From a virus: DNA of 64,000 nt. Under the pieces are notes generated by a model. The model was not told the DNA's origin. It saw only the letters and a program-made list of their open reading frames with translations, and searched no databases. The DNA is taken from IMG/VR virus record IMGVR_UViG_3300042731_011014, positions 96,001 to 160,000 of that record; one strand, written 5' to 3'. Below are positions 37,342 to 57,975 of the stretch, one piece after another; position 1 is the stretch's first letter, and each line of letters opens with the position of its first letter. Position numbers and translations under genes: made by a program.

Positions 37342-37770
37342 CTAACTTGTCTTATGACTGGCGCCAAGTAGACTTGCATAATCGACAACGGATTTAATTA
37401 ATACATTGTAGTCATTTTTATCACGCTGACCTGAAAAATTTTGTCTCAGTTTTCCATTTATATCCCTGACGCTAACATTAATCGTCTCCTCATCCACCTT
37501 AACATTGATTTTAAATCCGGTTTTTCTAACCTCCCCATCATGACCAAGTTCTTTTGCTCCAAAATGACCGGTTGCCTTGGCAGTTTCCTTGGTTACAGAG
37601 CTAGATCCCTCCATGTCATGAATAGGAATTGCCATCATATCGGAAATATCAGTCAAGGTAATTTTGGCAACGTCCTCAGGATGGCCATACCCCTCAGAAA
37701 GGTAAACCTCTCGTTTAAGACCATTTAATTTTTTGTTACATTCTTTAATACTCATTTTTTTTACCCTCAT
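37342..37770 (-). CDS. Hypothetical protein, possible internal head protein
   Basis: 142 aa; N-terminal YLSE could be a protease site. Confidence 0.5.
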   Translation of the reverse strand: MRVKKMSIKECNKKLNGLKREVYLSEGYGHPEDVAKITLTDISDMMAIPIHDMEGSSSVTKETAKATGHFGAKELGHDGEVRKTGFKINVKVDEETINVSVRDINGKLRQNFSGQRDKNDYNVLIKSVVDYASLLGASHKTS

Positions 37771-38591: not shown

Positions 38592-39065
38592 TTACTTTCT
38601 TTCTATTGGTGCAAGTGTCTCCAGATCTTCCAATAGTGTACTATCTAATCCAAAAATGGAGTTTTCTTTATACATTTTAGCTATTTTTGGCGCCTTTCCC
38701 GTATCAATGTAATCATCGATTTTCTTGATAGTTTTAGTAGGCTTCTTTTCCTTTGATTTGGGAAAATGCTTCTTAATTACCTTCTCAATTTTCAACGCAA
38801 GATCGTTGGCAGATTTTATTTTGAGTTCGGGTTTCTTTTTTGCTTCATTAAGTGAATCAATTAAGTCACTTAATGACATTTCCTCTTTCTTAAACGCTAT
38901 TATATCAGATGGTTTCATATCTTCCCCTGATTTTACACCGCATGCTTTTTTAAGTACGCTATAAGCTATTGCCATATCCTGCTTTGATGGTGGTTCACCT
39001 TTTTTTCGTTTATGGTTTACGTTCCACTGGAACGCTTTCATAGAGCATTGTTTTTTTAATGGCAT
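38592..39065 (-). CDS. Basic hypothetical protein
   Basis: MPLKK...KQDMAIAYS N-terminal module, internal LIDSLNEA. Confidence 0.55.
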   Translation of the reverse strand: MPLKKQCSMKAFQWNVNHKRKKGEPPSKQDMAIAYSVLKKACGVKSGEDMKPSDIIAFKKEEMSLSDLIDSLNEAKKKPELKIKSANDLALKIEKVIKKHFPKSKEKKPTKTIKKIDDYIDTGKAPKIAKMYKENSIFGLDSTLLEDLETLAPIERK

Positions 39066-39454
39066 TATTTCTTTCCATTTGTCATTTTTTTAATGACCTT
39101 ATTAAGAACAGGTAGCTTTTTCTCAAGTTCATCTCTAGTAAACATTTCGCTAAAAGACTGTCCTTTTTTACCTAAATCCTTAATCCCAAAATTAGGATCG
39201 TTGATACTTGCCTTTGCTTTATTCGGCCATTTGGCATAAACAGAATACATGGTATCGCCGTCAATATTATCAACCTCTACGCGAAACACGTAACCATTAG
39301 GATGCTCAAAAAACACTTGCTTCTTTTTATAGGCTATAACATTCCATCCTTTAAATCTTGTTTTTGAAAATAATTTCGTCATAGAAAGATCTGTACTCTC
39401 ATTCAGCACTACTTTTAGCTCATTCAGTTTGATATTAGCCAGCTTGATGTTCAT
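39065..39454 (-). CDS. Hypothetical protein, possible internal head protein
   Basis: 129 aa; N-terminal VVLNE/S. Confidence 0.55.
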   Translation of the reverse strand: MNIKLANIKLNELKVVLNESTDLSMTKLFSKTRFKGWNVIAYKKKQVFFEHPNGYVFRVEVDNIDGDTMYSVYAKWPNKAKASINDPNFGIKDLGKKGQSFSEMFTRDELEKKLPVLNKVIKKMTNGKK

Positions 39455-39590: not shown

Positions 39591-40004
39591 TTATTTTCCT
39601 ATTATTACAGGATTTTTAACCGTATCTATACGATCACTTTGACCATTGACAGTTTTTTTACTGGCCTCGTTAATTTTAAGTCTTTTGACAAGATCTAAAT
39701 GCTTTTCGCAAACCCCAATTACCTTACTAGAAATAGAGCTTTCACTTATAACACCTCTAAGCGCATAGTTAGATTGTTCGCCGCATACGTAACAAAGGTT
39801 TTTAAAGTTAAGTATAGGGCCATCGTAATCGTTAAACGCACCGCCCGATGATGGACTACCGCAACCATTCTGGGATGTACATCTGACTGTATTATCCCAT
39901 CTCTTTAACCCTTTTTCTTTTCCCTCCCAATATTTTTTACACATTGCGCAAACAAATATCAGACCAGTTTTCATCTCGCCAAGTACTTGTTCCTTCGTAA
40001 ACAT
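39591..40004 (-). CDS. Cys-rich (zinc-binding) hypothetical protein
   Basis: CAMC, C..C, CYVC and CEKH; start moved to MFTKEQ (GGAGA SD). Confidence 0.6.
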   Translation of the reverse strand: MFTKEQVLGEMKTGLIFVCAMCKKYWEGKEKGLKRWDNTVRCTSQNGCGSPSSGGAFNDYDGPILNFKNLCYVCGEQSNYALRGVISESSISSKVIGVCEKHLDLVKRLKINEASKKTVNGQSDRIDTVKNPVIIGK

Positions 40005-40017
40005 TATTTCTCCAATA

Positions 40018-40974
40018 CTATGAACCACCAAAGAGTTTCTTGTTTATATTAGCTCTAAACTTTTTAGCTAGTTCAGGTCCGCCAACTTCCCATCTTGGGA
40101 AATTTTTTATAAACGTTGGGTGATCTATTAATGACCCTTTTGGTATAATCATTATTAAGTCTTTTTTTAGATTCGCAGCCCATATATTATTTTCACTTCT
40201 TTTTATACCAGATGCAGCTTTTACCGCATCTCTAGTACTACTTCTGGCATAATGCTTAATTAGTTTTTTTATCCTGTCTTTTGCATGAAGATTATATACT
40301 TTTTCTTTTGGAATATACTCAAACTCTGGAATAAGCTTTTCAACTCTTTTTAAAAGAGCATTCGTAATTTTCTTCCCTGCTAGAAATAAATATTTTCTCT
40401 CATTTTTATGATAAAATAATGGATAATCAAAACTTTGCCTGAATCCGTAAGTCATGGACATTTTTTCCATTGCATCAGTTACGGTATCAGCGGATGTTTT
40501 TCTATATGCATTCAATACGATTTTTATTCTTTTCTCATCTACTGAACTTAATGATTTCTGATCTTTAGGAATAGTTACAGAATTCTTTATTTTAGTTATC
40601 ATCGATTTGGATAGTTCTTTAGTGATACCAAGAGCTTTATGAACATGATCAAACCCATATGGGGTAATACTTTTATCATCTTTATGCCAAACATAAAAGA
40701 TATGAACTATCTTCCTGTTACATGTCGAACATATTTCAGCTCTATCCCAATCACTCACCCTAACATCCTTAACTTCATCACCAATTTCTCTAATGTCCCA
40801 TTTCCAAGGCCAAATATAAGACACAACCTTATTTCCATTTGGACCCTCAAAGTTATCTTTTCTAAGGGCAGATTTTAACCAGTTTTTATTTGTATACTTA
40901 GATATAATTTTATCCTCAAAAAGACTCTTGTTTTTTCTGATAAAATCCAATCCCTCTCTAAAAATTTTACTCAT
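40018..40974 (-). CDS. Leader-bearing putative internal head protein
   Basis: N-terminus MSKIFREGLDFIRKNKSLFE; internal CSTC. Confidence 0.6.
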   Translation of the reverse strand: MSKIFREGLDFIRKNKSLFEDKIISKYTNKNWLKSALRKDNFEGPNGNKVVSYIWPWKWDIREIGDEVKDVRVSDWDRAEICSTCNRKIVHIFYVWHKDDKSITPYGFDHVHKALGITKELSKSMITKIKNSVTIPKDQKSLSSVDEKRIKIVLNAYRKTSADTVTDAMEKMSMTYGFRQSFDYPLFYHKNERKYLFLAGKKITNALLKRVEKLIPEFEYIPKEKVYNLHAKDRIKKLIKHYARSSTRDAVKAASGIKRSENNIWAANLKKDLIMIIPKGSLIDHPTFIKNFPRWEVGGPELAKKFRANINKKLFGGS

Positions 40975-41014
40975 TATATTTCCTTATTTTTAAGTCTAAT
41001 CCATATCATTTTCT

Positions 41015-42184
41015 CTAATGCTTTTGCATTACTTTTCTTATTTCTCCATCGCTTGTTTTATCTATCATATCTGCCAATCTTCTCATGTCAGTTAGTGTTT
41101 TTATGGCTTTTTTGGTTGGTTTTTTTGTTTTTGATGCTTTTATAATCTGCTTGGGGACCTCTAGAATAAGATCCTCAAGGTTAGCATATGAGTATTTCCC
41201 TTTGCTTACAAACCGTGTACGAAATAATTCATCAAAGGGGAATTTCAAAATTCTATATGCCCTATTGTTATGCCAATCCGGATAATTTCCTTTTTTGTAA
41301 TCATTTATAAAATCAGTAATGCCTTTTCTTATCTCGTCATTATCATAACTATCGTCATCTTTTCTTATGTCCAAAAGAACGTCCCCAAGTTTTTTCATAA
41401 AATTAAGAATTTTATTAAAATCAGATTTCCATTCGCTTTTGTCGCCAAGGCCAATGTCAGCTTCTTTTTCGCCGAACTTACTGGCAATTTTGTTAAATAT
41501 AATCATTTGTTTTGGTGACAGTGTCTTGCCGCGCTTAATCTGAGATCTAAACGAATCAATCATATCGTGATCACTATGAGGATCGCCTTTATAGTCGTCA
41601 TCCGGGACATTCCCAAAAATTACATCCTCAATTTTATCGCGGATTTCATTGACCTTTTTGAGCATTTTTTCGTCAACTTTTACATTAAAAAAATCAACAA
41701 CTATCTCAGGCAAAATATTTGGATCTCTTTTAAACTTTTGTTCAACCTTGGAAAAGTTCATTTTAAAGTCACCACCTTCACTTTTTGGATGATCAACTTT
41801 CACTTTTCCATGGTAAACAACACCGCCACTATCAAGGATAGTCATGAATGCATGGTATCTTATCTTCGATTTGGTTTTTCTTCCAAATTCTTTAAGTTGA
41901 ATTTTTTCGGCCACAACAATTGAATTTTTCCCATGATCATGACCCATTTTCTTAGCAATATCAGAAGCTTTTTTAAAATCAGTAGATCTAAAGCTATGAC
42001 GTGAGATATTTTTGCCCGCATTCAATAAAAACTTACCCTGCCTGTCAGATTTCCATTCGCCCTTGTTATTTTTAATGAGGGTATTAACCGATTTATAGAA
42101 ATCAACTATAGCCTCGTCTAATTGCTCAAAAATAAGCGAAGCTTCCCTAATTAGGCTTAATCCATGTTCTAATATTTTACTCAT
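41015..42184 (-). CDS. Leader-bearing putative internal head protein
   Basis: N-terminus MSKILEHGLSLIREASLIFEQLDE. Confidence 0.6.
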   Translation of the reverse strand: MSKILEHGLSLIREASLIFEQLDEAIVDFYKSVNTLIKNNKGEWKSDRQGKFLLNAGKNISRHSFRSTDFKKASDIAKKMGHDHGKNSIVVAEKIQLKEFGRKTKSKIRYHAFMTILDSGGVVYHGKVKVDHPKSEGGDFKMNFSKVEQKFKRDPNILPEIVVDFFNVKVDEKMLKKVNEIRDKIEDVIFGNVPDDDYKGDPHSDHDMIDSFRSQIKRGKTLSPKQMIIFNKIASKFGEKEADIGLGDKSEWKSDFNKILNFMKKLGDVLLDIRKDDDSYDNDEIRKGITDFINDYKKGNYPDWHNNRAYRILKFPFDELFRTRFVSKGKYSYANLEDLILEVPKQIIKASKTKKPTKKAIKTLTDMRRLADMIDKTSDGEIRKVMQKH

Positions 42185-42187
42185 ACC

Positions 42188-42652
42188 TTACTCCATTTCG
42201 GATATGATAGCGGATAAATCGCCTATTATACTCTCTTCTTTTTCCTGCTTCTGATACAATGAACTTAGCCCGTCAGTATTTATTTCGCCTTCGACCTTTG
42301 CGCATGACTTAGGCGAACTGAAGTGCTTACAATTTCCGCACCGCTTATTAGGGTCCTCTGATGTTTCAACATAACTGGCAGTCTCCTTGGACACCTTTCC
42401 TTTCTTACTATCGCTTTTCTTTCTTATACTCACATCAGATTTTTTGTTACTAATATTGGTGTTTCCTTTTTCCTTGTTATCCTCTTTACTTTTTTTAAGT
42501 GTCGGAGGTGGATCAGCCCTGTTGCCATCATCACCAATATTAGCGTCAGCGTCGTTATCCTGATCACTATCTTTGTCTTCTTTTTCGAGAATATATTTCA
42601 CTGTATCCTCAAGAAATTGAAGACCTTCTTTTAATATACTATTGTGTTTCAT
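42188..42652 (-). CDS. Leader-bearing protein with HiPIP-like Cys motif
   Basis: MKHNSILKEGLQFLEDTVKYILE; YVETSEDPNKRCGNCKHFSSPKSCAKVEGEINTDGLSSLY. Confidence 0.6.
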   Translation of the reverse strand: MKHNSILKEGLQFLEDTVKYILEKEDKDSDQDNDADANIGDDGNRADPPPTLKKSKEDNKEKGNTNISNKKSDVSIRKKSDSKKGKVSKETASYVETSEDPNKRCGNCKHFSSPKSCAKVEGEINTDGLSSLYQKQEKEESIIGDLSAIISEME

Positions 42653-42906
42653 AATTTTATTCCTTTTTCTTTTGCTAACGCTCTCAGATCGTCAATACTC
42701 ATATTGTCAAGAATATACGTCTCGTATCCTTTTGATGCATCCATTACCTTATACCTACCACTTATTTTTTTGGCATCGCCGGATCTTTTAAATGCTTTAA
42801 AAATCGCCCTTATAATTTTCATTTTAATATCAGCTTCAACAATCACTGAATGTTTTCTGATAAACTCTAAACCATTTTGAAGAATCTTACCGTATTTCAT
42901 AATCAC
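42649..42906 (-). CDS. Leader-bearing small putative internal head protein
   Basis: MIMKYGKILQNGLEFIRKHSVIVE. Confidence 0.6.
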   Translation of the reverse strand: MIMKYGKILQNGLEFIRKHSVIVEADIKMKIIRAIFKAFKRSGDAKKISGRYKVMDASKGYETYILDNMSIDDLRALAKEKGIKL

Positions 42907-42907
42907 C

Positions 42908-43456
42908 TCACGTATTCATCTTTCTTTCAGGAGTGAATTTAGAATGACGAATTAGCTCAAGGTTGAAACAATCATAAGTTGTACCGGTATCTTTGTCTCG
43001 ATCTATGCTGGTTATATCGAATTTAATACCATTCATTTCAACAATATCGCCTATTTTTGGGACAATTGTTTTGTCAGTAACTTCAGATGTTGCGTTAAGA
43101 GCAGTCTCCCAGTCCCCAAAAAGGATTTTTATTCGGGTATCAAAGGTTTTATACTTACCTTTTTCATCACCTGTTGTAGTGGTTCCAACAAACGCATAGA
43201 AGAAATCAAGCTCAAAACCAAAATCAACCTCTTTGATGTACTCGTTATTGATTGGTTCGTCATATAGTGGATCCCTGACAGTAGTGGCAAGATTTAGAAC
43301 TATGTATCGACCGGTAGTCTTTCCGGCCATGTCGCTTAGATCTATGTATTTATCATTAAGGCCAAAGCTTTTCTTAGTATCCTCAATCTCAGATATTATG
43401 TTTGTAAAAAACGCGGCTTCACGTTCCTGACATTTTGGCTTTGAGTCACAGCTCAT
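42908..43456 (-). CDS. Putative head closure (gp14-like) protein
   Basis: DPLYDEP and PKIGDIVEMNGIKFDITSI; position downstream of the gp13-like gene. Confidence 0.45.
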   Translation of the reverse strand: MSCDSKPKCQEREAAFFTNIISEIEDTKKSFGLNDKYIDLSDMAGKTTGRYIVLNLATTVRDPLYDEPINNEYIKEVDFGFELDFFYAFVGTTTTGDEKGKYKTFDTRIKILFGDWETALNATSEVTDKTIVPKIGDIVEMNGIKFDITSIDRDKDTGTTYDCFNLELIRHSKFTPERKMNT

Positions 43457-43457
43457 A

Positions 43458-43871
43458 CTATCCCCATCTTATTCGGCCACCAAAGCACTTGACAAGGTGT
43501 TCAAGGTGTTGCCTGGCCTCTTGTAATGGTGACATTTTTGGTTTTCTAACAGGTTCAAAATCATCTTCCTCGATACTGTAGTTGATCAAACTTTCGTCAT
43601 CATCAACGCCAGGTACACTGCAAAACATATCTATTTCACTATCAATCTCAGGACCACCTAACCCAAGCATCATATTACTAGTTCCACCACCTCCTTTAAG
43701 TATAAGATCCTCAAGCGGTGTACCCTGCATCTTAGGAGGAACAAATTGCTCAACCATTTTTTGCTTTTTCGACCTAGCAGGTTTACGTGCCTGTGGCGAT
43801 TGTCGTCTTGGTTGTTTTTTATTTGGAACCTTACATATACTAATGATTTCATCCATAAAGTTACTCATCAT
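43458..43871 (-). CDS. Hypothetical protein
   Basis: 137-aa ORF coupled to its neighbours. Confidence 0.55.
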   Translation of the reverse strand: MMSNFMDEIISICKVPNKKQPRRQSPQARKPARSKKQKMVEQFVPPKMQGTPLEDLILKGGGGTSNMMLGLGGPEIDSEIDMFCSVPGVDDDESLINYSIEEDDFEPVRKPKMSPLQEARQHLEHLVKCFGGRIRWG

Positions 43872-44446
43872 CTGCCCCTTTTTAGATCTCTTTCTATTCT
43901 TCTCTGCGTGCTTCGTCTTAGTGGTGACTTCTCTTTTTTGGGGACTTTCTTGCTCTTCTCTTTTTCCTTGCCTTTCTCCGCTTTGGCTTTTCTCGCTTCT
44001 TTACCTTGCTTTGTTCCGGTAGCCCCTCCAGATTTTTTATCATCATCTTTTTTACCCCTATTTAGACGTTTCAAGTATCTATTATACTCACGCTCAAACC
44101 TAAGTGTCATAAAATTGTAATGCGAAGTTTTTCTAGCGCCGCCACGCTCAAACGCATGCTTAAAATCACGTCTTACACCGCGCTGTGTTCGCTTCATATC
44201 CGAGACTTTCCCTTTATGGGACCCTCGTTTATAGAACGCTGATAAGCCATCCTTATGATGGTGCCAGGGTTTTGTCATAACATGTCTGCACATATTCATC
44301 GCAGCAAAAGCCCTGGTACCTTTTTTAGGTTTGAACTTTCTGTTTTTATAAACAGCCAAGGTGCAGTGTTTAATGAGCGTAGGTGCCTGTTTTAAATCCG
44401 ATTCACCAGCTTCAGCTAAAAGATGTTTTATACTAATAAGTTTCAT
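43868..44446 (-). CDS. Highly basic protein, possible DNA-binding core protein
   Basis: Lys/Arg-rich throughout; N-terminal HLLAE/A. Confidence 0.55.
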   Translation of the reverse strand: MKLISIKHLLAEAGESDLKQAPTLIKHCTLAVYKNRKFKPKKGTRAFAAMNMCRHVMTKPWHHHKDGLSAFYKRGSHKGKVSDMKRTQRGVRRDFKHAFERGGARKTSHYNFMTLRFEREYNRYLKRLNRGKKDDDKKSGGATGTKQGKEARKAKAEKGKEKEKSKKVPKKEKSPLRRSTQRRIERDLKRGR

Positions 44447-45332
44447 TTATTACTTTAGCCTTTTCAAATTTATACCTTCCAAAACAATCAAAACCTTGAG
44501 TATTAAAAATCTTTTTAATCTCCGGTCTTACATTTTCAGATCTATCAACTATCCAAATACACTCTGTACGTTCTTTATCAATGCTAACTTCTTTTATTTT
44601 AGAAGCGAATATTTTAACTTCAAACCTGATAGTAAACCATTCATCTGGAACATAGTTGTTATCATATCCTGATAAAACGAATGAGCCCTCTGCATTATTA
44701 AGAGCAAGGATAAGGTTTTTATAATAGCTATCGTCAATTTTAAATTCATAGTTCTGATCAGTGCCAATATATGGCGGGTCACAATAAAATAAAGTTTGCG
44801 GACTGTCCCATTTTTTAATTATATTAATAGCATCATCACATTCAATATAAACACTCTGCAATCTATCAAGTGGACTTTTTAATCTGTTATTCCCATTAGA
44901 CCAAGTAACACAATGATTTTGAGTAAATAAACCAAAACCCCATCCGCCATTTTCTATTTTTGCAAATGATTGATTTATATTAACATAATACGCCCATGCT
45001 TTTTCCAGATCGCTAGCGCCATTAGGATTTTTACATATTTCTACAGCCTTTTTATGTTCAGCCTTAGAGTATGGAGTAAGTTTTAAATGCCTTATTAATT
45101 CTTCACCATCATCACTACGTAGCACCCTAAAAAAATTAACTAAAAGCTCATTTTTATCGTTAAGAACTTCACGATAGTGAGTACTGTTAGTTATCATAGG
45201 TAGTGGTTTTGTAAAAAATACTGCTGCACCACCACAGAAAGGCTCTACATAAACAGTGTGATTGGGGAAATACTTCACAATTTTCGAAGCTATACGCTGC
45301 TTGCCACCATAATACGAAATAGGAGTTTTCAT
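44433..45332 (-). CDS. dam: DNA adenine methyltransferase (D12/Dam class)
   Basis: ISYYGGKQRIA, YVEPFCGGAAVFF, LNDKN, FYCDPPY. Confidence 0.92.
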   Translation of the reverse strand: MKTPISYYGGKQRIASKIVKYFPNHTVYVEPFCGGAAVFFTKPLPMITNSTHYREVLNDKNELLVNFFRVLRSDDGEELIRHLKLTPYSKAEHKKAVEICKNPNGASDLEKAWAYYVNINQSFAKIENGGWGFGLFTQNHCVTWSNGNNRLKSPLDRLQSVYIECDDAINIIKKWDSPQTLFYCDPPYIGTDQNYEFKIDDSYYKNLILALNNAEGSFVLSGYDNNYVPDEWFTIRFEVKIFASKIKEVSIDKERTECIWIVDRSENVRPEIKKIFNTQGFDCFGRYKFEKAKVINETY

Positions 45333-46876: not shown

Positions 46877-48358
46877 CTATGGCAGGTTAGAACAAGTGAT
46901 TAAACCATAGTACTTATTGTTAACTAATTTTTTCGCGTAGCGTGTCCGCATCCCCTTCCTGAAGTTTTGGTCATCAGGGTCGAGGAATGTTGGAGTAACC
47001 TGTAAGGGCACATAAGGCGCATACACCATTCCTGAATCCAAGAATGTTGGTCCCTTTAGGCCTATCATGATTTGATCATCTGGGAATAGTGGATCAACAT
47101 AAACAGTCCATCGGTTTTGTAACACGCCTAGGCCATATACACCGAATCCTGACGGCGACGTTGGAGGTTGAGGTGCGGGTTGACCAAGGGTCCCTTGACC
47201 AGCCGGCATACTTCCACCATCAAAAACTGATTTAAAGCTACCATGAGTCTCCATGGCGCTAAACAAGGATGCAGCCCGAGTGCTTGTAACAATCCAATTA
47301 CCCGGACCACGCAAGGTTTGCTTACCGACTTCCTGGGAAACCTTGGCAATCTTGGTTAAAAGAGTCATGTAATGCTCTACTGGGCTATAGCTTAAACCAG
47401 ACACATCCGCATCAAACGATTCCTTGTTTGTACCAGCGGCAGCACCTAAATACATGTCCATAATTAGCTCACGGTCGATTTCCAGAGCCAGTTCTGATGC
47501 TACACCACCAACTAACTCCCCTTCAGCGTCCATACCGTGTATGGCTTTTAAATCATCGGCAGCTTCAGCGCTCCACAAGAATTTCAGCTTCCGGCTACTT
47601 ACCTTGATTGGGTCAAGGCCGATATCCAAATAGACTTGAGGCACGGTAACATTTGCCCCTTCCATATCGAAAAAGTAGTTAGCGTAGATAGGAGCTTTGT
47701 CATCTACATTACCATCCCAGGTAATATCATAGGCACCATCCGAGTAAGTAATCGTTGATGCTGCACCAGTATCACCAGCTAAATCCCCACTTCCGTCGGG
47801 ATCATAGATTCTTTTGGCTGCGGTTCCAACCAGGGTTGTAAACTCAAGACCAACTTGGGCTTGCGGACATGAAATAAAAGGTTTTACAGGTGTCCATGAA
47901 AGGTTACCAGTGTAATTCGCTGTCGCACCATTACCGGTCGCGATAACTTCGTGATAGATATACTCTGAAGAATAATACCTGTCGAAGTTCTCGATCATAT
48001 TGTCGCCAGCTGTAATTGTTCCCTTGGAGGTACCGTATTTGTACTCCCAAGTGAAAATGCCTCCTATAGGGCCAGTCATTGGTTGTATAGAAACGAGATT
48101 GTTAGCAATTAAGTTCGGCCATACCCTACGAATCATAGGGAAGACGAACTTCACGAAATCAGCGAAGTTACCTGTGGTTGTATTTTCACTGAGGTTTCGG
48201 ACATGCTGCATTTGATTTTCGAATAAAATAGCCGTGGCTGCCCTACGATAGGGTTCATGGATACCTTCTAAAAGGGGTGCCCATTTTTTAGTTACAGCTG
48301 CGACAAAACTCTTATTTTGAATTGAACGGGTTTCGTTCATTATTTCTCTGGCTTCCAT
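46877..48358 (-). CDS. gp23: Major capsid protein (T4 gp23-like)
   Basis: FPMIRRVWPNLIANNLVSIQPMTGPIGGIF; SRKLKFLWSAEAADDLKAIHGMDAEGEL; YAPYVPL; TRYA. Confidence 0.97.
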   Translation of the reverse strand: MEAREIMNETRSIQNKSFVAAVTKKWAPLLEGIHEPYRRAATAILFENQMQHVRNLSENTTTGNFADFVKFVFPMIRRVWPNLIANNLVSIQPMTGPIGGIFTWEYKYGTSKGTITAGDNMIENFDRYYSSEYIYHEVIATGNGATANYTGNLSWTPVKPFISCPQAQVGLEFTTLVGTAAKRIYDPDGSGDLAGDTGAASTITYSDGAYDITWDGNVDDKAPIYANYFFDMEGANVTVPQVYLDIGLDPIKVSSRKLKFLWSAEAADDLKAIHGMDAEGELVGGVASELALEIDRELIMDMYLGAAAGTNKESFDADVSGLSYSPVEHYMTLLTKIAKVSQEVGKQTLRGPGNWIVTSTRAASLFSAMETHGSFKSVFDGGSMPAGQGTLGQPAPQPPTSPSGFGVYGLGVLQNRWTVYVDPLFPDDQIMIGLKGPTFLDSGMVYAPYVPLQVTPTFLDPDDQNFRKGMRTRYAKKLVNNKYYGLITCSNLP

Positions 48359-48409: not shown

Positions 48410-50014
48410 TTATTCTTTTTTAATTCCTGACAGATCAACTAAAGTATCTATTCCTATTCCAAACAAATCGCCTTCATCCAGCTTTTTTGCTCGGGTATCC
48501 GAATCTATGGAAGTATCATTTCTCCCCTTACGAAGAGATCTAGTGATACTATTATACTCTTCACTTACAGGATTATTATCATCGTATTCATCAATGATAT
48601 CATTAATCTCTTGCTGATTATTTGCAGCACCGTTCGAAATTGCACCCTCAATAATTTTGCGAACCCTTAATTTGTGCGGGTGATCCGAAATCTTGCGCTC
48701 CACATAAAGTTGCAATGCAAGCTGTCGAGCTGCTATATGAGCCTCAGTTACACTCTGTGATAATTTGTCATTATCATCTTTGAGCTTCTGAACTTCCTCA
48801 GTAACAGCACGTTCGGCCTCCGATTGCTTCTTTACCTTGTTGATAACCAATCTGACTGATTCCTCAAGCTCACTGATTGATTTAAACCTCATTATGTCGC
48901 CAATGTTATTTTTGACAACTTCAAGATTCTCATCAATCTCATTAACTATATTAGTCAAATGATGTTCAAATCCAATCCGCTTTGCAACGTTCATGTAATC
49001 GTCACGTTCTTTCTCAAGAGCCTCAACTTTTTCCTTGAGTTCACTGCTAACTTTCTTAAGTTGTTCCTTAAGATCTGAGATCTCCTTTTCTCTTTGACTA
49101 ACGAGATCGTTAACATCCTCAGGTAAAAGATAAGGAATGAGTTTTTTTGCAATATCTTCCAGTGTTACTTTGGCTCCAGCTACACCAGGATCACTTAGTA
49201 GCTCGCCGCGCACTTCTTCCTTTGCTTCACTCTTTATCGTCCCTACTTTATCTTCAAGCTTCTTTGCAAAATCCTGCTTAAGATTGTCTTCTATTTCCTT
49301 TTTAAGCTCTTCCTTTGTCTTATTGCTCTGCTTTTCGATTTCTTCCTTTGTTTCCTTCACTGCCATTGAGACAATGTTGTTATATAATTCAGGATATTTC
49401 TTTCTAAATTCCTCAATTGTCATGTCTGAATCTCCATCACCCTCTTGGGTCTGATTATGTTTTTGTTCGTTTACACCAGTAACATTGTCATCGCTGCTAG
49501 TTTCCTCTTTAAAATCAGGATACGAATTCACCGCAGCTGGATCTGCAACGAAATCAAATGTTATTAGGTTATAATCCTCTTGTACAATGTCATTGCCAGA
49601 CCCATCAGGTCTAGTGGTGCCCCAACCTCTGCTAGAAACTCCGACCTTGCCGCCAGACCCAACAATAGCCTTAAGTTCCTTGCCCTTAGAGGTATCCATA
49701 ACCAGTGCTTCACCATAAATTTCACCATTTGGTTTCATTTGAAGCTTAGTGATTCTATGACTTGATCGAGATAGTTTTGTTTTACCATCCCCAGGATGAT
49801 CGAGTTCACCATAAACAGTATTTTCTTTAATAGCGCTTTGCTTTTTATGTACCTCACGCTCCATTAATTTGCGCTTGTACACTCTCTTATTTGCTGTAGG
49901 CGTATCACTTAAGCCAAATCTACCTTTAGCTATTAATCTGGTATTACCAGCGGATTCCTCAAGAACATTAATGCTGACATTGGACCATTCATCAATTAGT
50001 AAGACCTTATCCAT
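48410..50014 (-). CDS. gp21: Prohead protease (gp21-like) fused to a scaffold-like coiled coil
   Basis: NKRVY, GELDHP, SHRI, GVSSRGWG and FDFVADP, followed by about 350 aa of charged helix. Confidence 0.9.
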   Translation of the reverse strand: MDKVLLIDEWSNVSINVLEESAGNTRLIAKGRFGLSDTPTANKRVYKRKLMEREVHKKQSAIKENTVYGELDHPGDGKTKLSRSSHRITKLQMKPNGEIYGEALVMDTSKGKELKAIVGSGGKVGVSSRGWGTTRPDGSGNDIVQEDYNLITFDFVADPAAVNSYPDFKEETSSDDNVTGVNEQKHNQTQEGDGDSDMTIEEFRKKYPELYNNIVSMAVKETKEEIEKQSNKTKEELKKEIEDNLKQDFAKKLEDKVGTIKSEAKEEVRGELLSDPGVAGAKVTLEDIAKKLIPYLLPEDVNDLVSQREKEISDLKEQLKKVSSELKEKVEALEKERDDYMNVAKRIGFEHHLTNIVNEIDENLEVVKNNIGDIMRFKSISELEESVRLVINKVKKQSEAERAVTEEVQKLKDDNDKLSQSVTEAHIAARQLALQLYVERKISDHPHKLRVRKIIEGAISNGAANNQQEINDIIDEYDDNNPVSEEYNSITRSLRKGRNDTSIDSDTRAKKLDEGDLFGIGIDTLVDLSGIKKE

Positions 50015-50025
50015 ATTAAAGTCCT

Positions 50026-50838
50026 TTACTCGTCATCTCCTAAAAAAACCTCTGGTAACTCAATCTCGTCATTTTCACCCTCTTCGAGATCTTCTTGGAT
50101 GCTTTTGTGTACATTAACAGCTTCACTTAGTACCTGAGTGATAATATGCACGCCAAAATCAAGCTCTAGTGACATATCTTCGGTTAGCTCCTCATCGTGG
50201 ATATTTTCCAATGCAGATTCGGCCATTGCGCCAGTTGTCATTAGTTCATCAATTAGCTCTTCAAGGGCTTCGTGTTCTTCGTATTCTTCGAATGACTCGA
50301 TTAGTGTAAGAGCTAAATATCTAGCGCCATCTAAAAACTCCACATATTCTTCATGGGTCCCTTGCGGATCGTGAATCTGCTCAAGCAGAGAAATGGAATT
50401 GTTAAGATGATCCATGGCAGTATTTTCGCCAAAGCCCCTTCTTTTGAGTTTTTTTCTGGCGATCTTTGCTTTTATCTTTGATGATGCTTTCTTCCAATAT
50501 TTTTTAGCCAAGGCCTTCATTTTGGCCGTAACCTTCTTAAAAAATACCTTGCCGCCTTTCATAACTCTATGGAAGCCTTTTTTGTGGCGACCTTTTTTTC
50601 TCTTTTTTCCAATTGCAGTAAGCTTCTTAAGTAGACCTTCGTCTAGATCAAACTCATCATCGAAGTCTTCGCTTTCGTCTTCGTTTTCATTTTCTAGATC
50701 TAAATCTGTGTCTTCTATATTGTCATCTTCGTTTAGGTTAAAAGTTTCCTCTCCTAAATTTCTTTTTTCGCCTCTTGTATTTAGCAGCGTAAGATCTTCT
50801 TCAAGCGCATTTAGTGAAAAAAATCGTCTATCTATCAT
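50026..50838 (-). CDS. Putative prohead core protein (gp67/gp68-like composition)
   Basis: Acidic ends around a central Lys-rich block; between the portal and protease genes. Confidence 0.45.
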   Translation of the reverse strand: MIDRRFFSLNALEEDLTLLNTRGEKRNLGEETFNLNEDDNIEDTDLDLENENEDESEDFDDEFDLDEGLLKKLTAIGKKRKKGRHKKGFHRVMKGGKVFFKKVTAKMKALAKKYWKKASSKIKAKIARKKLKRRGFGENTAMDHLNNSISLLEQIHDPQGTHEEYVEFLDGARYLALTLIESFEEYEEHEALEELIDELMTTGAMAESALENIHDEELTEDMSLELDFGVHIITQVLSEAVNVHKSIQEDLEEGENDEIELPEVFLGDDE

Positions 50839-50856: not shown

Positions 50857-52143
50857 TTATGAATTTTTTTCTAAAGCTTTACTAACAAGTTTCGTTGCAA
50901 GCTCATAGTCAACTAGGTTTTTTGCAAATTCATCAAAGACCAATCCAAGGCAAGGAATACACCCATCACTCTCGATTACCACTTCTTTTATACCATTACT
51001 GAGATCTGCCAAGTCATCTTTTAAGTCTTTAATAAAAATGTTAAATTCCTTTATTGCCTTATCAGACTTAAGATCTCGAAACACATGATCTCTTTTCTGG
51101 TATTCATCATGATATTTTGATATGTTCTCTTTTAGATTATTTACTCTAGATACTAAATTATCTATATCTTGCTCAATCGTTTGGGATGCTTCGGCAAGTT
51201 TTTCGTCGCTAATATTTTTAGAATACAAATGGCGATATTTTGATTTCAATGATTCTTCTTTTATTTTTCCAATATCGCCATAAAGAACTTTTGCTACAGT
51301 CTCTTTATTGTCTCTTAAAAATTCTTTCCACTTCTTATTTGTCGGAAATACTTTTTTAAGTGACGATACGACCCTGTCAAAACTCTCAATTAGGATGGAT
51401 TCCTTGTCTGGAACAGACCTTATAAGCTTACGCATATTGTCTTTAAAAAGACTATCATCCCCTTCTATCAGACCCTCAACAGCACTATTTATTACTTCGT
51501 TTGAATCTTCCTCATAAACAGCAATATTGGCGTCCGCGACCTCGTTAAATTCAACACTATTATCAGAGCAACTAAATCGTGCTCTGTAGAACTTACCATC
51601 ACTATTTGCGACTACAACATAATCTTTAAATGTTGCTATTGGTTTCGCAAATCCTTCGGTAAACTCAATCTCTATATCACCCGATCCCTCAAGAGAATCT
51701 GCGGACATTGACACAATCTTATCCTTACTGGGACCATCAAGCATTTTGACGTCATAGGCAACAGGGGTCCCAAATATTCCAAGGTTCACCTTGATAATTT
51801 TACCCTTATGTTTGCCTTTTTTTACATCAATATCAACCTCTGTAACTATCGAACTATTGTCACATGTGATACTTTCAATCACTTGTTTGTTATTATCTAA
51901 AAGATCGGCTTCGTAAATTCTTCCATCTTCATCACTGCTCACAATGCCAGTGATACGACCGCGCCTATCTAGAATAAAAACTTCCTTCCCAACAATTTTA
52001 TCTTCTTTTAGTCCAAATTTTGTTCTGTTGTTTTCTACAGCGTATCTTACTTTTTGAAGCAAGTTTTCGTAAGAACCTTCCATCAGTTTATCTATTATTC
52101 TGGTAGGTACGTATTTACTCTTTGATTCTGTATCGTTAGCCAT
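50857..52143 (-). CDS. Hypothetical head-region protein
   Basis: 428 aa immediately downstream of the portal. Confidence 0.6.
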   Translation of the reverse strand: MANDTESKSKYVPTRIIDKLMEGSYENLLQKVRYAVENNRTKFGLKEDKIVGKEVFILDRRGRITGIVSSDEDGRIYEADLLDNNKQVIESITCDNSSIVTEVDIDVKKGKHKGKIIKVNLGIFGTPVAYDVKMLDGPSKDKIVSMSADSLEGSGDIEIEFTEGFAKPIATFKDYVVVANSDGKFYRARFSCSDNSVEFNEVADANIAVYEEDSNEVINSAVEGLIEGDDSLFKDNMRKLIRSVPDKESILIESFDRVVSSLKKVFPTNKKWKEFLRDNKETVAKVLYGDIGKIKEESLKSKYRHLYSKNISDEKLAEASQTIEQDIDNLVSRVNNLKENISKYHDEYQKRDHVFRDLKSDKAIKEFNIFIKDLKDDLADLSNGIKEVVIESDGCIPCLGLVFDEFAKNLVDYELATKLVSKALEKNS

Positions 52144-52254: not shown

Positions 52255-55200
52255 TTATGCTACTTTTTTGTAGCTGATAGCTTCCTTAATCTCGCGCATG
52301 AGGATCCTTAGTTCTCTAACACCTTTATTGAGTTCTTTGTTTGAATTAATAATATTTAAAACCTGGTCTTTTGACACATTCTTATCTCTGCCTGAAGTAA
52401 GTCTTCTTTCAAATCTGCGTCTTAATTGCTTTTTAACAACTTGAAGGTCCTCTTGAGGAACGTTTTCTGCTGGCTTTTCGGCCGGCAATTGTCCACTCAT
52501 TGATATTTTAGATCTGATTTTATCTTGCCTACCTTCAATTGATGCCATTCTTATAGCATCCTCAACACGATGATCTAAGATATCCTCAATTTCTGAGTTA
52601 GTCATGCCGAAAATGTTTTCCATAATCCATCGTTGTGATACCCATTGTTGCATAGAATCGGCTAACTGTGCTCTTTGATTTCTCACTTCCATTTGGGCCA
52701 TTTCAAAAACAGCGCTCGGGACTGTCATCATGACATTAAAATTAACAGATGATGGGTCAAGGCCTTTAGCCGCAAGATGGACACGTCCAATTTGATGGAA
52801 TCCAGTTTTAAGGACCCTTTGGACCCTCAGTATTGTACGCGCAAATCTAACATCTTCCTGGGAATTATGAACAAAAACTCCGCATTCCGTAGCAAAATTA
52901 TGATAACCATCAACAGTCATATCATAAGTATCAATAACAGGGCCTTCTCTAACTTCAACAACCTTATGATTTCTCCCCTTTTTTATCGCGGTAGCAGTAG
53001 ACCTACTCATGTACTTCAGCATGTACTCATGTGCAAAATCTGCGTACTTGATGCCATTTTCTGAAAAAATCCTATTAAGTAAACACTCACTATATCCGGA
53101 CCACTTAATAAGCTCTTTTTTACTTTTACATCTATAACTTTTTGCAACTTCTATTAGATGTTCAATATTTGCATCAGCACCTGGACTATAAACCTGCTCG
53201 TAATCTTTTAACTTTTGTGCCCTACCAATACCAGAAGCATTTCTCCTATATAGAGGCATTAGTGAATCCTCAGGTTTTAAATCTATTGCTTCTCTATAAG
53301 ATCCGTCTCTCATCATAATAGGATGATCTGGCGTACAAGTTAAAATCTCCCCGTTATCAAGAACAACTTCCACTGTTCTGGTTTTTTTCTTAGTTAAACG
53401 AGCATTTTTTGCTAGACCAGGTACAATATGACCATCATCATTACAAGAGTAAACCCAAAATGGCTTGCTTCTTTTTGAAAGATTCTCAATTGTTTCAGAT
53501 GTTCCATCCAATAAAGGAATCATTGTATTGCCAGCTAAACACAAGGTGGCTCGTGATATTGTTTCCTCATACCCAAGGTAAGCCCTAGGAACTTTTATTG
53601 CTGCATACAATTTCATTCTAAAATAATCAACGTCATCAATTCCCTGGTACATACTACCCTGAAGCATGTCAATCCGCGTACTATCTTTTCCACTACGTGT
53701 TGGAATCCAGAAATCCTCATCTTGAGAATTCTTTATGAAAATACCAGCCGTTAACGCAAAATTATGATATTTTTCAACAGTTAAAGTATAAGTATCTTCA
53801 CACTGTTCAATGTATTTAACTGAAACGACTTTATGATTATTCGATGATGCCCATTTTTTAAAAGATTTGAAATTGTCAAAACCTTTTTCCCTATACATTT
53901 TTAACATTAAATGTCTATGAACTTTCTTTGACAAATTTTCCTGTTTAAATAAATCAATCAATCTGGAATTATTGACATAATTTACAACATCTTCTGCGCT
54001 AACATTTAAATTGTTGGCCACATATGATTGAACGCCAACGAAAAAATCATCAGAAAACTTAATTTTTCTTTTTTCAGAAAAAGCTACTCTGTTTTCCTCG
54101 TTTTCCCAAAATTTCTTTTTATTTTCTGACCGCTTAACATTGTCTTGCTCATGTTTACATGAATTATTATAAGCTATTATGTACTTTTCTATCTTATTCC
54201 AAGCTGAAATATTTGCAGATGACACCTTTTTTAGTTTTTTATCCAAAACAGGATCGGATAACCTTATCTGAGACATAATATGACCAATATTATGACCATT
54301 ATCACGATGTATTATACTATGTTCGCTTTTTTTCATAAAAGACAAATTATCGGGAGAATTATCAGTTTTTATAAAATTTTCATGATGAGTTACACCATTT
54401 TGCTTCAATTCATCTCTAACCATACGATGGGTGTAAATATATTTTTTTGTTTTTGGATCATAAACCATCTCGTACCCATCTATTGAATAACCCTTATCCT
54501 TTGACGAAATAAGAGTTTTGTATGGCATAAGAGAATCACCAGATTTTAAATATCTTGCTTCACAATATTTCCCATCTCTTTTTATAAATTTATGATCTGG
54601 GGTAGTCCTAATTGTTTCACCATTATCAAGAGTTACCTCAACAAGTTGTGCCATTTTTCGGGTTTTTCCTGCCCAAACTATTTTTCCTGGAACAATTTTC
54701 CCACTATCAGATCTATCAACAGAATATACCCAGTTCTCTTTTCCTCTGTTGAATTCGCCAACAAGGTTAACTATTGGGATATCTCTGCCATCAAGTAACG
54801 CTATTTTTGTATCACCGGTCAAACAAAGAGGATTGTACTTCATATTCAAAGTACCATCTGAGTTGACAAACTTGCGTTTTTTAAACTCATTTCGCATTTG
54901 TCTGACATGAGCGGTCGCCTCATCGGCATCCATGTCACCCGTATCAACGTAGAAAGCAAACCTTGTAGGAGCCCTGGTAAGTCGGTAAACAAGCATCGCA
55001 TCCTCAAGGAGAACTAATCGTTTCCAGATCCATCTTGCGGGCTCGAGCACGCTATTGTGAACAACAATACCATCTGAAACAAAGCAATGTCCGTCATCAG
55101 CAACTTCTATGTCATAAACCTTTTCAATAATACTTGGTTCTTTAGAAACTATTTTTTCTGAAAAAAAATCATTATCAGAAATATTTTCTCTAAAGAATGA

Positions 55201-57975
55201 CAACAAATAACTGTCTCCACTATTTATTTCTTTACCATTTATTATAGATTTTTTATCTCTCGGCTTACGCGGTCTAATGTTCCCAGATATCCATCCTAAT
55301 CCATCTATAACTGTTTTAATATCAGCTAAAAGATTTTTATTGCAAAGCTCAGTGTGATTATATTCTCCTTTTTTGGTTATCCACCCGTCGGCCTCCATAA
55401 ATCCATCTATCATCGCTGTTCTGATACTTTTTGGAGCATTATAAACCCAATATGGCACTCTTTTGTTTCTTGCCCTATTAATCCACCCTATTTTAATCAT
55501 TAGATCAGATAATCTTTTTGAACTGACATTAATCGTCCTGCTTATTCCATCATCTCCTCTGCTGACTTCTCTGACATTTAAACCAATACTTCTTAAGTAA
55601 TTTTCATAAAATATATTTCTTTCTTCATATACTCCAAGGTGTATAATTATACACCCGTTTTCAATTGCACCATTACCAAGCATATACCCCCAAAACTTGG
55701 CAAATCTATGATCTATAAAATCTGGCAAAATCAATGAATCATATTTTTTCTGCTCAATAGAGTCATAAGTAAATGGTACTCTAATGGAACTAAACAATTT
55801 TTTTGCACTATCAAATGACAAAGAACTTTTACCATCTAATAATTCATCAAGCTTTCCTTTAGTTATCCCAATATCTTCGGCAAATCTTTTCAATCCATCA
55901 AATTTACTGGAATATTTACTTATTTTTGCACAAGTTTTAAGCGAGTTAATTCCACGTTTACTTAAAACAAATTCAGATTTAGAATTAAACTCATCTAATA
56001 AAAGGCCAAGTGGAATATTATTCTTTGTTTCTGGGCAATTACTAACGCACATTATTTTATCATTAGGAGACAAATCTTTAACCTGAACCCACGTATTTCT
56101 CCCTGGCTTTTTATCAACTAAAACAGGATGTTCGCCAGTTAATATTATTTCTCTATGTGCTGTTTTTAACTTAAAGGTTTGCTTTTCCCCACTACAAACA
56201 TGATTCAGTACTTTAGTTTGTCTAAGTAACCCTGCGTGTCTAGTAAAAACACTATCGCCTGGTTTAATATCCTTAATGAACTTCACACCATCTGGGGTCC
56301 AAACCCTTGATTCACCTGATAAACAATACCCGTACTTACTCTTTCTCATTTTTGATCTAAGACGGAAATGAGCAATCTTCCATGGCTCATATAAAATGGT
56401 ATTACCATCCTGGGATGCCATTGCACCGTTTGGCATTTCAATGCCAAAAACAGATTTATCAATTTTAAAGTCACCTGAATAAGATTGTGCAAACCCCAAT
56501 ATTGCACCGGTCCCAGTTTCAAACCTCCTAATCGTAGCTGATGGAAGGAAATTTAATCCCTGAACACCATCATCGTTAACCAGTATCTCTTCATAATCAC
56601 TGCCATATTTGCAAACTGTTCTAGATATCTCCCAAATATTGTCTTCAGCTCTTATTTTGTTGTCATACATATCGGTAAGATCTGTTTGAACATTATCATC
56701 CTCGCATTCAACCCACATAGATCGGTTTTTTTCACCATCAGTTTGTGTTGAATCGTCTGCATATATATCGAGAGCCGAATTGTGAACAACTACTCCATTG
56801 CAAACAAAATTATGATATTTTGGGACTTCAATATCATACACATCGTAAGATTCGCTAATTCTTATAACATTAACCACTCGATGATTTCCAACATCAGAGA
56901 TGAGATCGAATTCTTCTAGCCTGCGTTTCAGTACGCCAAAAGATACGCCTAGCTTTTTTGCTGCCTCAGTTATACTACTTGATGACATATAAGCAGCTTC
57001 AACCTCTTCCCTGCTAAGCTTTATTTTATGCCCTTCAGCTATCTTGCGCTTGTGCTCTTCTGATAGTTTTTTGTCTGTTAACGGCACTCTCTGCTTTTTA
57101 TCTGTTTTCCTTTGATTTGGATGTTTTGTTCCAAGCATTTTTCTAGAGCGCTCTTTGCGCAATTCATCTGTCCATTCTGGAAAATACTTAGTTGTATCGT
57201 GACTTTCGAAATTATGCTTTCTGGCATGAGAATTATGGGTTTCTAGACTAAGGTTGTCCAAACTATTATTTAAAGGGTTGTTGTCTTTGTGGTGGACAAC
57301 CTCCCCTTTTTTTCTTTCCAAAAGCTCATTAGCGACCAATTTATGAATCCAAGTCCACCTTTTCCCGTCACTTTCTCTTATTGATTCTGGTGATGGTTGG
57401 TGGACTTGCCAATATTCGTTTTTACTCTTAGGAGTTAATTTTCTAGTTCTAAGTGCCCCTGGCATTAATCGTGTACCAGGTTTTAGTTCGCCAGCTTTTT
57501 TCCAAACATTAATTTTGGTTAAAAACAAATGATCATCAGTACATGTAATGCTTTCGCCATTATCAAATAAAACTTTGACCATTTGTTTTGGATGACCTGC
57601 CTTGCCTGTTATACGTGCATTTTTTGCTTTTGCAGGTAATAGAGATCTTCTTAACCTGTTATAAGAAAGAACATGAAACTCTCCTCCTCTCTCTGCAAGT
57701 TTTTTAACTTCAATCCAACCATCTTCTATTGTAAAAATCTTACAACATCCCGTAATACAAGAAAGATCTGGGTAGTCATCCATATTTTCATAATCGACAT
57801 AGCGACTCATAAGATCATGATCTAATTGCAAATAATCGGCTACTGAGTCAAATCCGAACTGCATAAACAGGTTGAAATCTTTTTCGCCAGCCTGAGGAAG
57901 ATCGGACCGAGAAACCTCATTTTCTCTTTTGAAAATATTTCTTACATATCCAGCAATTTTATCACTTATTGACAT
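52255..57975 (-). CDS. gp20: Portal protein (T4 gp20-like), 563-aa extein plus four inteins
   Basis: Extein motifs ALDIYADD, IAHFRL, YGY|SVLEPARWIWKRLVLLEDAMLVYRLTRAP, |SQDEDFWIP, DDVDYFRMKLYAAIKVP, |SQEDVRFARTI. Confidence 0.95.
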   Translation of the reverse strand: MSISDKIAGYVRNIFKRENEVSRSDLPQAGEKDFNLFMQFGFDSVADYLQLDHDLMSRYVDYENMDDYPDLSCITGCCKIFTIEDGWIEVKKLAERGGEFHVLSYNRLRRSLLPAKAKNARITGKAGHPKQMVKVLFDNGESITCTDDHLFLTKINVWKKAGELKPGTRLMPGALRTRKLTPKSKNEYWQVHQPSPESIRESDGKRWTWIHKLVANELLERKKGEVVHHKDNNPLNNSLDNLSLETHNSHARKHNFESHDTTKYFPEWTDELRKERSRKMLGTKHPNQRKTDKKQRVPLTDKKLSEEHKRKIAEGHKIKLSREEVEAAYMSSSSITEAAKKLGVSFGVLKRRLEEFDLISDVGNHRVVNVIRISESYDVYDIEVPKYHNFVCNGVVVHNSALDIYADDSTQTDGEKNRSMWVECEDDNVQTDLTDMYDNKIRAEDNIWEISRTVCKYGSDYEEILVNDDGVQGLNFLPSATIRRFETGTGAILGFAQSYSGDFKIDKSVFGIEMPNGAMASQDGNTILYEPWKIAHFRLRSKMRKSKYGYCLSGESRVWTPDGVKFIKDIKPGDSVFTRHAGLLRQTKVLNHVCSGEKQTFKLKTAHREIILTGEHPVLVDKKPGRNTWVQVKDLSPNDKIMCVSNCPETKNNIPLGLLLDEFNSKSEFVLSKRGINSLKTCAKISKYSSKFDGLKRFAEDIGITKGKLDELLDGKSSLSFDSAKKLFSSIRVPFTYDSIEQKKYDSLILPDFIDHRFAKFWGYMLGNGAIENGCIIIHLGVYEERNIFYENYLRSIGLNVREVSRGDDGISRTINVSSKRLSDLMIKIGWINRARNKRVPYWVYNAPKSIRTAMIDGFMEADGWITKKGEYNHTELCNKNLLADIKTVIDGLGWISGNIRPRKPRDKKSIINGKEINSGDSYLLSFFRENISDNDFFSEKIVSKEPSIIEKVYDIEVADDGHCFVSDGIVVHNSVLEPARWIWKRLVLLEDAMLVYRLTRAPTRFAFYVDTGDMDADEATAHVRQMRNEFKKRKFVNSDGTLNMKYNPLCLTGDTKIALLDGRDIPIVNLVGEFNRGKENWVYSVDRSDSGKIVPGKIVWAGKTRKMAQLVEVTLDNGETIRTTPDHKFIKRDGKYCEARYLKSGDSLMPYKTLISSKDKGYSIDGYEMVYDPKTKKYIYTHRMVRDELKQNGVTHHENFIKTDNSPDNLSFMKKSEHSIIHRDNGHNIGHIMSQIRLSDPVLDKKLKKVSSANISAWNKIEKYIIAYNNSCKHEQDNVKRSENKKKFWENEENRVAFSEKRKIKFSDDFFVGVQSYVANNLNVSAEDVVNYVNNSRLIDLFKQENLSKKVHRHLMLKMYREKGFDNFKSFKKWASSNNHKVVSVKYIEQCEDTYTLTVEKYHNFALTAGIFIKNSQDEDFWIPTRSGKDSTRIDMLQGSMYQGIDDVDYFRMKLYAAIKVPRAYLGYEETISRATLCLAGNTMIPLLDGTSETIENLSKRSKPFWVYSCNDDGHIVPGLAKNARLTKKKTRTVEVVLDNGEILTCTPDHPIMMRDGSYREAIDLKPEDSLMPLYRRNASGIGRAQKLKDYEQVYSPGADANIEHLIEVAKSYRCKSKKELIKWSGYSECLLNRIFSENGIKYADFAHEYMLKYMSRSTATAIKKGRNHKVVEVREGPVIDTYDMTVDGYHNFATECGVFVHNSQEDVRFARTILRVQRVLKTGFHQIGRVHLAAKGLDPSSVNFNVMMTVPSAVFEMAQMEVRNQRAQLADSMQQWVSQRWIMENIFGMTNSEIEDILDHRVEDAIRMASIEGRQDKIRSKISMSGQLPAEKPAENVPQEDLQVVKKQLRRRFERRLTSGRDKNVSKDQVLNIINSNKELNKGVRELRILMREIKEAISYKKVA
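52864..53541 (-). mobile_element. Intein 4 (226 aa; no recognisable endonuclease)
   Basis: L|CLAGNT ... FATECGVFVHN|S. Confidence 0.92.
53728..54825 (-). mobile_element. Intein 3 (366 aa, HNH type, ends Lys-Asn)
   Basis: L|CLTGDT ... THRMV...THHENFIKTDNSPDNL ... FALTAGIFIKN|S. Confidence 0.92.
55054..56325 (-). mobile_element. Intein 2 (424 aa, LAGLIDADG/DOD type)
   Basis: Y|CLSGES ... WGYMLGNG ... IDGFMEADG ... GIVVHN|S. Confidence 0.93.
56779..57759 (-). mobile_element. Intein 1 (327 aa, HNH type)
   Basis: S|CITGCC ... WIHKLV...VVHHKDNNPLNNSLDNL ... GVVVHN|S. Confidence 0.92.

Follow-up and report, generated by a model that had tools for sequence, protein, structure and literature searches.

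In bacteriophage T4, unrelated internal proteins carry N-terminal propeptides known as capsid-targeting sequences (CTS), of 10–19 residues, which are cut off by the protease gp21 (PMC9026906, PMC3012670). The carriers include IPI, IPII, IPIII, and Alt (Mullaney & Black 1996, reviewed in PMC9026906, PMC3012670), and the CTS reads MKTYQEFIAE, 10 residues in all (10.1101/2021.01.19.427310). Here, we describe four adjacent genes, designated A–D, that share an N-terminal leader in an uncultured phage represented by the IMG/VR record IMGVR_UViG_3300042731_011014. The stretch analyzed, hereafter the window, comprises 64,000 nucleotides (bases 96001–160000 of the record), and every long open reading frame (ORF) within it lies on the minus strand. 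The record is a single contig of 177,890 bp that CheckV calls complete. The phage branches deeply within the T4 superfamily. Its capsid protein is of the gp23 type, its portal of the gp20 type, and its protease of the gp21 type (Peptidase_S77); the closest major capsid proteins (MCPs) from isolated phages are only ~30–33% identical. The leader shared by A–D is probably a lineage-specific capsid-targeting propeptide that docks cargo to the core before being cut off by the head protease, as for the T4 internal proteins.

Several other systems bear a likeness to this arrangement. Encapsulin cargo-loading peptides are short, portable, and direct unrelated cargo into a shell of the HK97 fold; unlike the proposed leader, they are usually C-terminal, are not removed, and attach to the shell instead of to a scaffold core. 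In the giant phages phiKZ, 201phi2-1, and SPN3US, a protease related to gp21 processes proteins inside the head at x-x-E (PMC5694885). The giant-phage propeptides mostly exceed 100 residues and end in an A/S/G-x-E motif (PMC5694885), whereas the window leaders span 20–23 residues and have Leu or Ile at P3 in four of four cases. The SPN3US paralogues gp53 and gp54 possess an identical N-terminus for which a CTS-like role has been proposed (PMC5694885); those two proteins are paralogues, whereas the carriers of the window leader are non-homologous. Phage P1 offers a further example of an N-terminal packaging signal, given that a stretch of at most 30 residues from DarB suffices to direct a foreign protein to the capsid interior, and the P1 cargo is an injected anti-restriction protein (PMC9024508). 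In contrast to A–D, the Dar proteins have no consensus leader, PMC9024508 draws no link to a T4-type protease motif, and the P1 head is not T4-type.

A leader common to four unrelated neighbors

Genes A–D lie side by side on the minus strand, as the first-pass annotation of this DNA had described, and the N-termini and consensus given there are correct. Gene A (40018–40974, −) encodes 318 residues, with the leader at residues 1–20 (40915–40974) ending in LFE before Asp. Gene B (41015–42184, −) encodes 389 residues, and its leader, also residues 1–20 (42125–42184), ends in IFE before Gln. The shorter products of gene C (42188–42652, −; 154 residues) and gene D (42649–42900, −; 83 residues) begin with leaders of 23 residues (42584–42652; ILE before Lys) and 22 residues (42835–42900; IVE before Ala), respectively. 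A Shine-Dalgarno-like sequence precedes all four starts. For gene D, the ATG at 42900 is a more likely start than the GTG at 42906, with GAGGTG located 5 nt upstream of the ATG. Since D overlaps C by 4 nt and only 3 nt separate C from B, at least these three genes are probably co-translated.

Within the leader, a core of K/S-I-L/F-x-x-G-L-x-F/L-I/L is followed 7–9 residues further on by [LI]-x-E, giving the terminal sites LFE-20 (A), IFE-20 (B), ILE-23 (C), and IVE-22 (D). Two features of a T4-type CTS are thereby present: a short N-terminal peptide is common to unrelated proteins of one phage, and the gp21 cleavage motif, (L/I)-x-E, closes each leader. The remainder of each protein is indeed unrelated to the others, with blastp E-values above 0.3 among them and a probability of 1.8% when the A family was compared with the B family by hhalign.

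The similarity among the leaders exceeds what composition would produce. Pairwise Smith–Waterman scores were 2.6 to 9.3 standard deviations above composition-preserving shuffles, and a hidden Markov model (HMM) of the leader matched just these four of the 2626 stop-to-stop ORFs in the whole 178-kb genome, with the next best match at E = 0.8. This genome-wide motif search, which the first-pass annotation had proposed, confines the leader to A–D. When each leader was left out of the model in turn, A, B, and D ranked straight after the training set (E-values of 2e-4, 1e-2, and 3e-5, respectively). The leader of C fits a regular expression for the GL core that was composed with all four leaders in view, and the other matches to this expression were three short spurious ORFs. 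At the nucleotide level, identity among the leaders is low and no greater than their protein sequences demand, with different codons for the invariant Ile, Gly, Leu, and Glu. The similarity is thus kept by selection on the peptide and is not the product of recent duplication, gene conversion, or an RNA element. Beyond this genome, a search of 1.84 billion representative proteins with the leader profile returned nothing besides the window's own A–D. The leader HMM likewise found no match in six related IMG/VR loci (L001–L006; MCPs 53–72% identical), and eleven metagenome loci containing B homologues (L007–L017) do not carry the window leader either. Genes in the related loci were called from the first ATG only.

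The helical hydrophobic moment of the leaders is above that of shuffled sequences (p 0.002–0.047) and their mean hydrophobicity is ~0, which together indicate amphipathic helices rather than signal peptides or membrane anchors. In AlphaFold models, the leader is the low-confidence N-terminal part and the rest is well modeled (predicted local distance difference test, pLDDT, of 78 for B and 72 for A). An amphipathic leader would also suit a shared function outside the virion, such as recognition by an enzyme of the kind that acts on ribosomally synthesized and post-translationally modified peptides, a degron, a membrane-targeting helix, or a helix that binds a host target. We regard such a function as quite improbable. 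No radical S-adenosylmethionine enzyme gene (PF04055) was found in the complete genome, in scans whose positive controls worked; the leader does not have the hydrophobic core of a signal peptide or membrane anchor; and the genes reside in a late structural module, with the leader linked to the motif of the head protease.

The head protease and its probable cleavage motif

A capsid-targeting propeptide of the T4 kind goes with a gp21-family protease, and the window encodes one. The genome has a single S77 gene, that of the prohead protease (48410–50014, −; 534 residues), with the domain at residues 27–175 (Pfam Peptidase_S77, 3e-16). His73, Ser127/Ser128, and Asp154 are invariant in the alignment with T4 gp21, and these residues are candidates for the catalytic His, Ser, and Asp. 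A gp21-family protease with conserved His/Ser/Asp is therefore a further feature that the phage has in common with the T4 system. Following the S77 domain is a conserved, charged, helix-rich C-terminal extension of ~360 residues, which is also present in L001 and L006; the window protein may be a protease–scaffold fusion. In L004, the protease homologue is 920 residues long and aligns as two separate segments, a pattern suggestive of an insertion.

The MCP provides a view of what this protease would cleave. Its gene (46877–48358, −) belongs to the gp23 family (Pfam Gp23, 1e-67), and the propeptide, residues 1–58 (48185–48358), ends in LSE-58. The T4 gp23 propeptide is 65 residues long (PMC5694885), and its terminal LTE-65 aligns with an invariant LxE in the window MCP and four related MCPs. 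In all five clade MCPs, [LI]xE is confined to the first 72 residues and is absent from the ~430 mature residues, where ~5 occurrences would be expected from the genome-wide rate of 1.15 per 100 residues (P of zero = 0.007 for each protein). The capsid maturation site thus carries the same protease motif as the leaders, and this site pattern, read from sequence, constitutes indirect but good evidence that the protease retains T4-like [LI]xE specificity. Taken together, the likeness to the T4 CTS extends to an N-terminal propeptide on unrelated proteins, its (L/I)xE end, the S77 protease, and the gp23/gp20 head module. The cargo is also mostly basic, and its genes sit in a variable region, as in T4.

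A number of observations weigh against a cleaved capsid-targeting propeptide. The [LI]xE motif is weak, given that it ends at residues 8–35 in 42% of the other ORFs in the studied loci. Mature A, B, and C hold additional [LI]xE sites, which would have to be protected structurally if each protein is cut only once. C is an acidic protein and fits weakly into the leader family: the leave-one-out HMM misses it (E 17), and its leader is the most divergent and has a one-residue indel. The window leader (20–23 residues; core KILxxGLxFI) also has twice the length of the T4 CTS. Finally, Smith–Waterman alignment of the leader with the T4 CTS scored no better than shuffled sequences. Accordingly, the window leader is best described as an analogue or a far-diverged form of the T4 CTS and not as a recognizable homologue.

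Different leaders on the same candidate cargo in related phages

Related phages do not share the window leader, yet they show the same arrangement with leaders of their own. For example, MNLRxRGYLxE begins four or five adjacent small ORFs in L004, and two proteins in L005 begin MSVLxELK and continue to LNE. L006 has three leader sets, among them MQDRFxxLLE before Ala and LMEEMxxxAGLxE, whereas L002, L007, and L008 each have their own leader pair or trio. The loci L012, L014, and L011 have in common the leader M(R/K)LSxxLxE before Ala. The B orthologue (in L007, L008, L012, L014, and L011) or the C orthologue (in L005) shares its leader with a non-homologous neighbor. Although a scan of viral_contigs with the B family found no relative, the metagenome scan did.

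To place numbers on this pattern, the N-terminal 27 residues of proteins with non-homologous bodies were compared. Within loci, 9 of 2068 pairs reached a Smith–Waterman score of at least 40; between loci, 2 of 27,210 pairs did (odds ratio 59, p 2e-9). The pairs are only partly independent, since a family may have up to five members. The link to the protease motif also emerged when proteins were chosen by N-terminal similarity alone (score of at least 35): [LI]xE ends at residues 8–35 in 21 of these 22 proteins, compared with 95 of 226 other ORFs (p 5e-7).

Orthologous cargo proteins reveal where the leader stops. The A orthologues P0009–P0011 are 48–64% identical, and in each an LxE sits 1–4 residues ahead of the conserved body. 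Their leaders are 29% identical, compared with 57% for the body, and barely align with the window leader. Among the closer B orthologues, the [LIC]xE sites occupy one alignment column. Across orthologues, identity amounts to 23–29% in leader columns and 47–57% in bodies. For C, the GL core of the window protein is an insertion relative to the L001 and L005 orthologues, whose leader differs. The leader therefore changes faster than its cargo between phages, yet is alike across unrelated cargo within a phage, which is the pattern expected of a common, phage-specific receptor.

These comparisons bear on two further explanations. According to the first, A–D are old paralogues whose bodies have diverged past recognition, leaving the N-terminus as a slowly decaying remnant that serves no shared function. 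The genes do lie side by side in one orientation, and small phage proteins diverge fast; nevertheless, the bodies span a sixfold range in length and profile comparison shows nothing in common among them. A leader that evolves faster than the body between orthologues but remains alike within a genome is the opposite of a passive remnant, and the different codons for the invariant residues also speak against one. We judge this origin to be very improbable. The second explanation, which is somewhat less improbable but still unlikely, holds that the leader remains uncleaved and serves as a docking helix at a different site of the virion or its assembly machinery, such as the neck, tail, capsid exterior, or a chaperone. 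Amphipathic helices are generic protein-binding elements, and A–D are located between head-neck and tail genes. Such a helix would leave unexplained why the similarity stops at [LI]xE in the window and in at least seven other leader types, and why the conserved bodies of A and B orthologues start right after the site. The cargo is moreover small, basic, and mostly helical, unlike adhesins or fibers.

We thus favor a lineage-specific capsid-targeting propeptide. In the mechanism that we infer, in all its parts from attachment to the core and cleavage to packaging, ejection, and the action of the cargo, the amphipathic leader would dock A–D on the scaffolding core during prohead assembly. Candidate receptors are the long C-terminal extension of the protease and two proteins of 270 and 428 residues encoded beside it. 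After closure of the shell, the gp21-type serine protease would cut behind the [LI]xE at the end of each leader (LFE-20, IFE-20, ILE-23, and IVE-22) and, in the same step, cut the MCP at LSE-58 and fragment the scaffold. The leader peptides would then exit the head, the mature and mostly basic proteins would remain with the DNA, and mature A–D would probably be delivered to the host at infection. The first-pass annotation had proposed a new capsid-targeting tag. The protease family, the terminal [LI]xE, the LxE of the MCP, and the arrangement in relatives all agree with a targeting tag; what is new is the sequence, which follows the known T4 CTS principle and does not amount to a new kind of system.

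The relatives do add a difference from the T-even phages, where one CTS occurs on varying cargo; here, members of one cargo family bear different leaders from phage to phage within the clade. Lineage-specific leaders on the same cargo families point to co-evolution of leader and scaffold. A plausible but tentative extension is that, within this deep T4-superfamily branch, the leaders serve as private address labels that evolve fast and in step with the scaffolding core of each phage. Cargo entering or persisting in another lineage would then have to adopt the label resident there, as families A, B, and C appear to have done.

The B family also includes members with other N-terminal arrangements. 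In L008 (8417–11041, +), an 874-residue frame has the B-family domain as its C-terminal part, and the resident leader motif of that contig lies immediately ahead of the domain, inside the frame. Either translation starts within this frame, or the arrangement is polyprotein-like and includes an internal site for processing. In some B orthologues (L013:4501–5616, +; L016; L017), the leader is absent or the N-terminus lacks [LI]xE, so the B family is not always tagged.

Candidate cargo proteins and the surrounding head module

Once freed of their leaders, A (298 residues, isoelectric point, pI, 9.85), B (369 residues, pI 9.5), and D (61 residues, pI 9.9) would be basic proteins (pI 9.5–9.9) like the T4 internal proteins. 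Mature A has invariant Cys/His residues, mature B a confidently modeled fold, mature C an acidic, low-complexity sequence with a conserved Cys cluster, and mature D an HeH/Rho_N-like motif at its C-terminus. Library scans with PHROGs and Pfam gave nothing meaningful for A–D, D having only weak matches to PHROG families without an assigned function and a sub-threshold match to Rho_N. A sequence search of the PDB with the A profile found no match, and Foldseek searches of the PDB with the AlphaFold models of B and A returned no match at E ≤ 0.001. With VIA-align, the B model retrieved only generic helical bundles (Z ≤ 6.6), and the A model retrieved noise-level matches (Z ≤ 4.2), with hints at Z ~3 of zinc fingers and, further along the protein, of a winged helix. 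An ESM Atlas search on the cargo gave no usable result. As these searches assigned a function to none of A–D, the anti-defense or host-takeover role suggested in the first-pass annotation is hypothetical. Within the A family, residues 75–112 form a small beta-rich region with invariant D-W-D, C-x2-C, H, and D-H-x-H. Based on these invariant residues and the weak structural hints, A may be a metal-binding, DNA-binding cargo protein.

Genes A–D occupy a slot in the head-neck late module that is flanked by two conserved genes: upstream by g182 (42908–43456, −) and downstream by a Cys-rich gene (39591–40031, −), the true start of which is likely an ATG near 40004. The content of the slot varies. 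In L001, it holds four genes, of which C alone is common to the window; in L005, it holds C alone; and in the more distant L021, it is empty. A slot of varying content resembles the variable internal-protein loci of the T-even phages (PMC3012670, PMC9026906). The A–B part (40001–42000) has the lowest G+C content in the window, 0.32 compared with ~0.38, as would suit a cargo region that was acquired recently or evolves fast. No enrichment was seen for the T4 late-promoter motif TATAAATA (11 matches, 8.2 expected), and a scan for sigma-70 promoters and terminators gave results at chance level.

Two genes between the protease and portal genes encode the candidate receptors introduced above, and neither product had a family match in the library scans. 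The first (50026–50838, −; 270 residues) is likely a scaffold of the gp22 type, judged by its position, size, and site density: it has 13 [LI]xE sites, compared with 16 in the 269 residues of T4 gp22. Its acidic, [LI]xE-rich arms surround a site-free, extremely basic block of ~85 residues, which proteolysis would free as a basic internal peptide. The second (50857–52143, −; 428 residues), with a coiled-coil-like C-terminal part and 10 [LI]xE sites, is a further candidate prohead-core protein. Beyond these genes lies the portal gene (52255–57975, −), whose 1906-residue product matches Portal_T4 (5e-51) and is interrupted by several intein/Hint domains and an HNH domain.

Other proteins of the window have [LI]xE sites near their N-termini. 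The first-pass annotation had listed such sites as fitting the same protease, and those it named are present: LNE-12/19 in g129, LSE-26 in g142, LAE-12 in g192, and LSE-58 in the MCP. The protein g192 (43868–44446, −; 192 residues) is very basic, with a K/R-rich C-terminal third, and LAE-12 is its sole [LI]xE. The corresponding site in the L001 orthologue, LTE-13, lies directly ahead of the same conserved body. We consider g192 a candidate internal protein with a short propeptide of T4 length, distinct from the four-gene leader. In g129 (39065–39454, −), a 12-residue N-terminal stretch ends in LNE and is followed by a second site, LNE-19; in g142 (37342–37770, −), IKE-10 accompanies LSE-26. 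The N-termini of g129 and g142 score 33 against each other and may represent a second, weaker leader class. Also located within the head-neck structural module is a DNA methyltransferase gene (44433–45332, −; phrog_56, E 3e-56), which was not seen at the corresponding position of L001 or L005. No transfer RNA genes were found in the window.

Proteins that are packed in the head and injected with the genome form a first line of phage counter-defense and are difficult to predict. The present analysis offers A–D as four candidate virion-internal proteins. The first-pass annotation had also raised use of the leader as an engineering tag; this application is remote for an uncultured phage without a known host. 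This case contributes explicit evidence of orthologous cargo that bears different, resident-type leaders in different lineages. If the address-label interpretation is true, the A and B families would be new, widespread injected proteins. Packaged cargo would then be findable by a sequence rule, namely N-terminal similarity among non-homologous neighbors combined with a terminal [LI]xE. If a capsid-targeting propeptide is the correct reading of the leader, the T4 CTS principle would extend to distant, uncultured T4-like phages.

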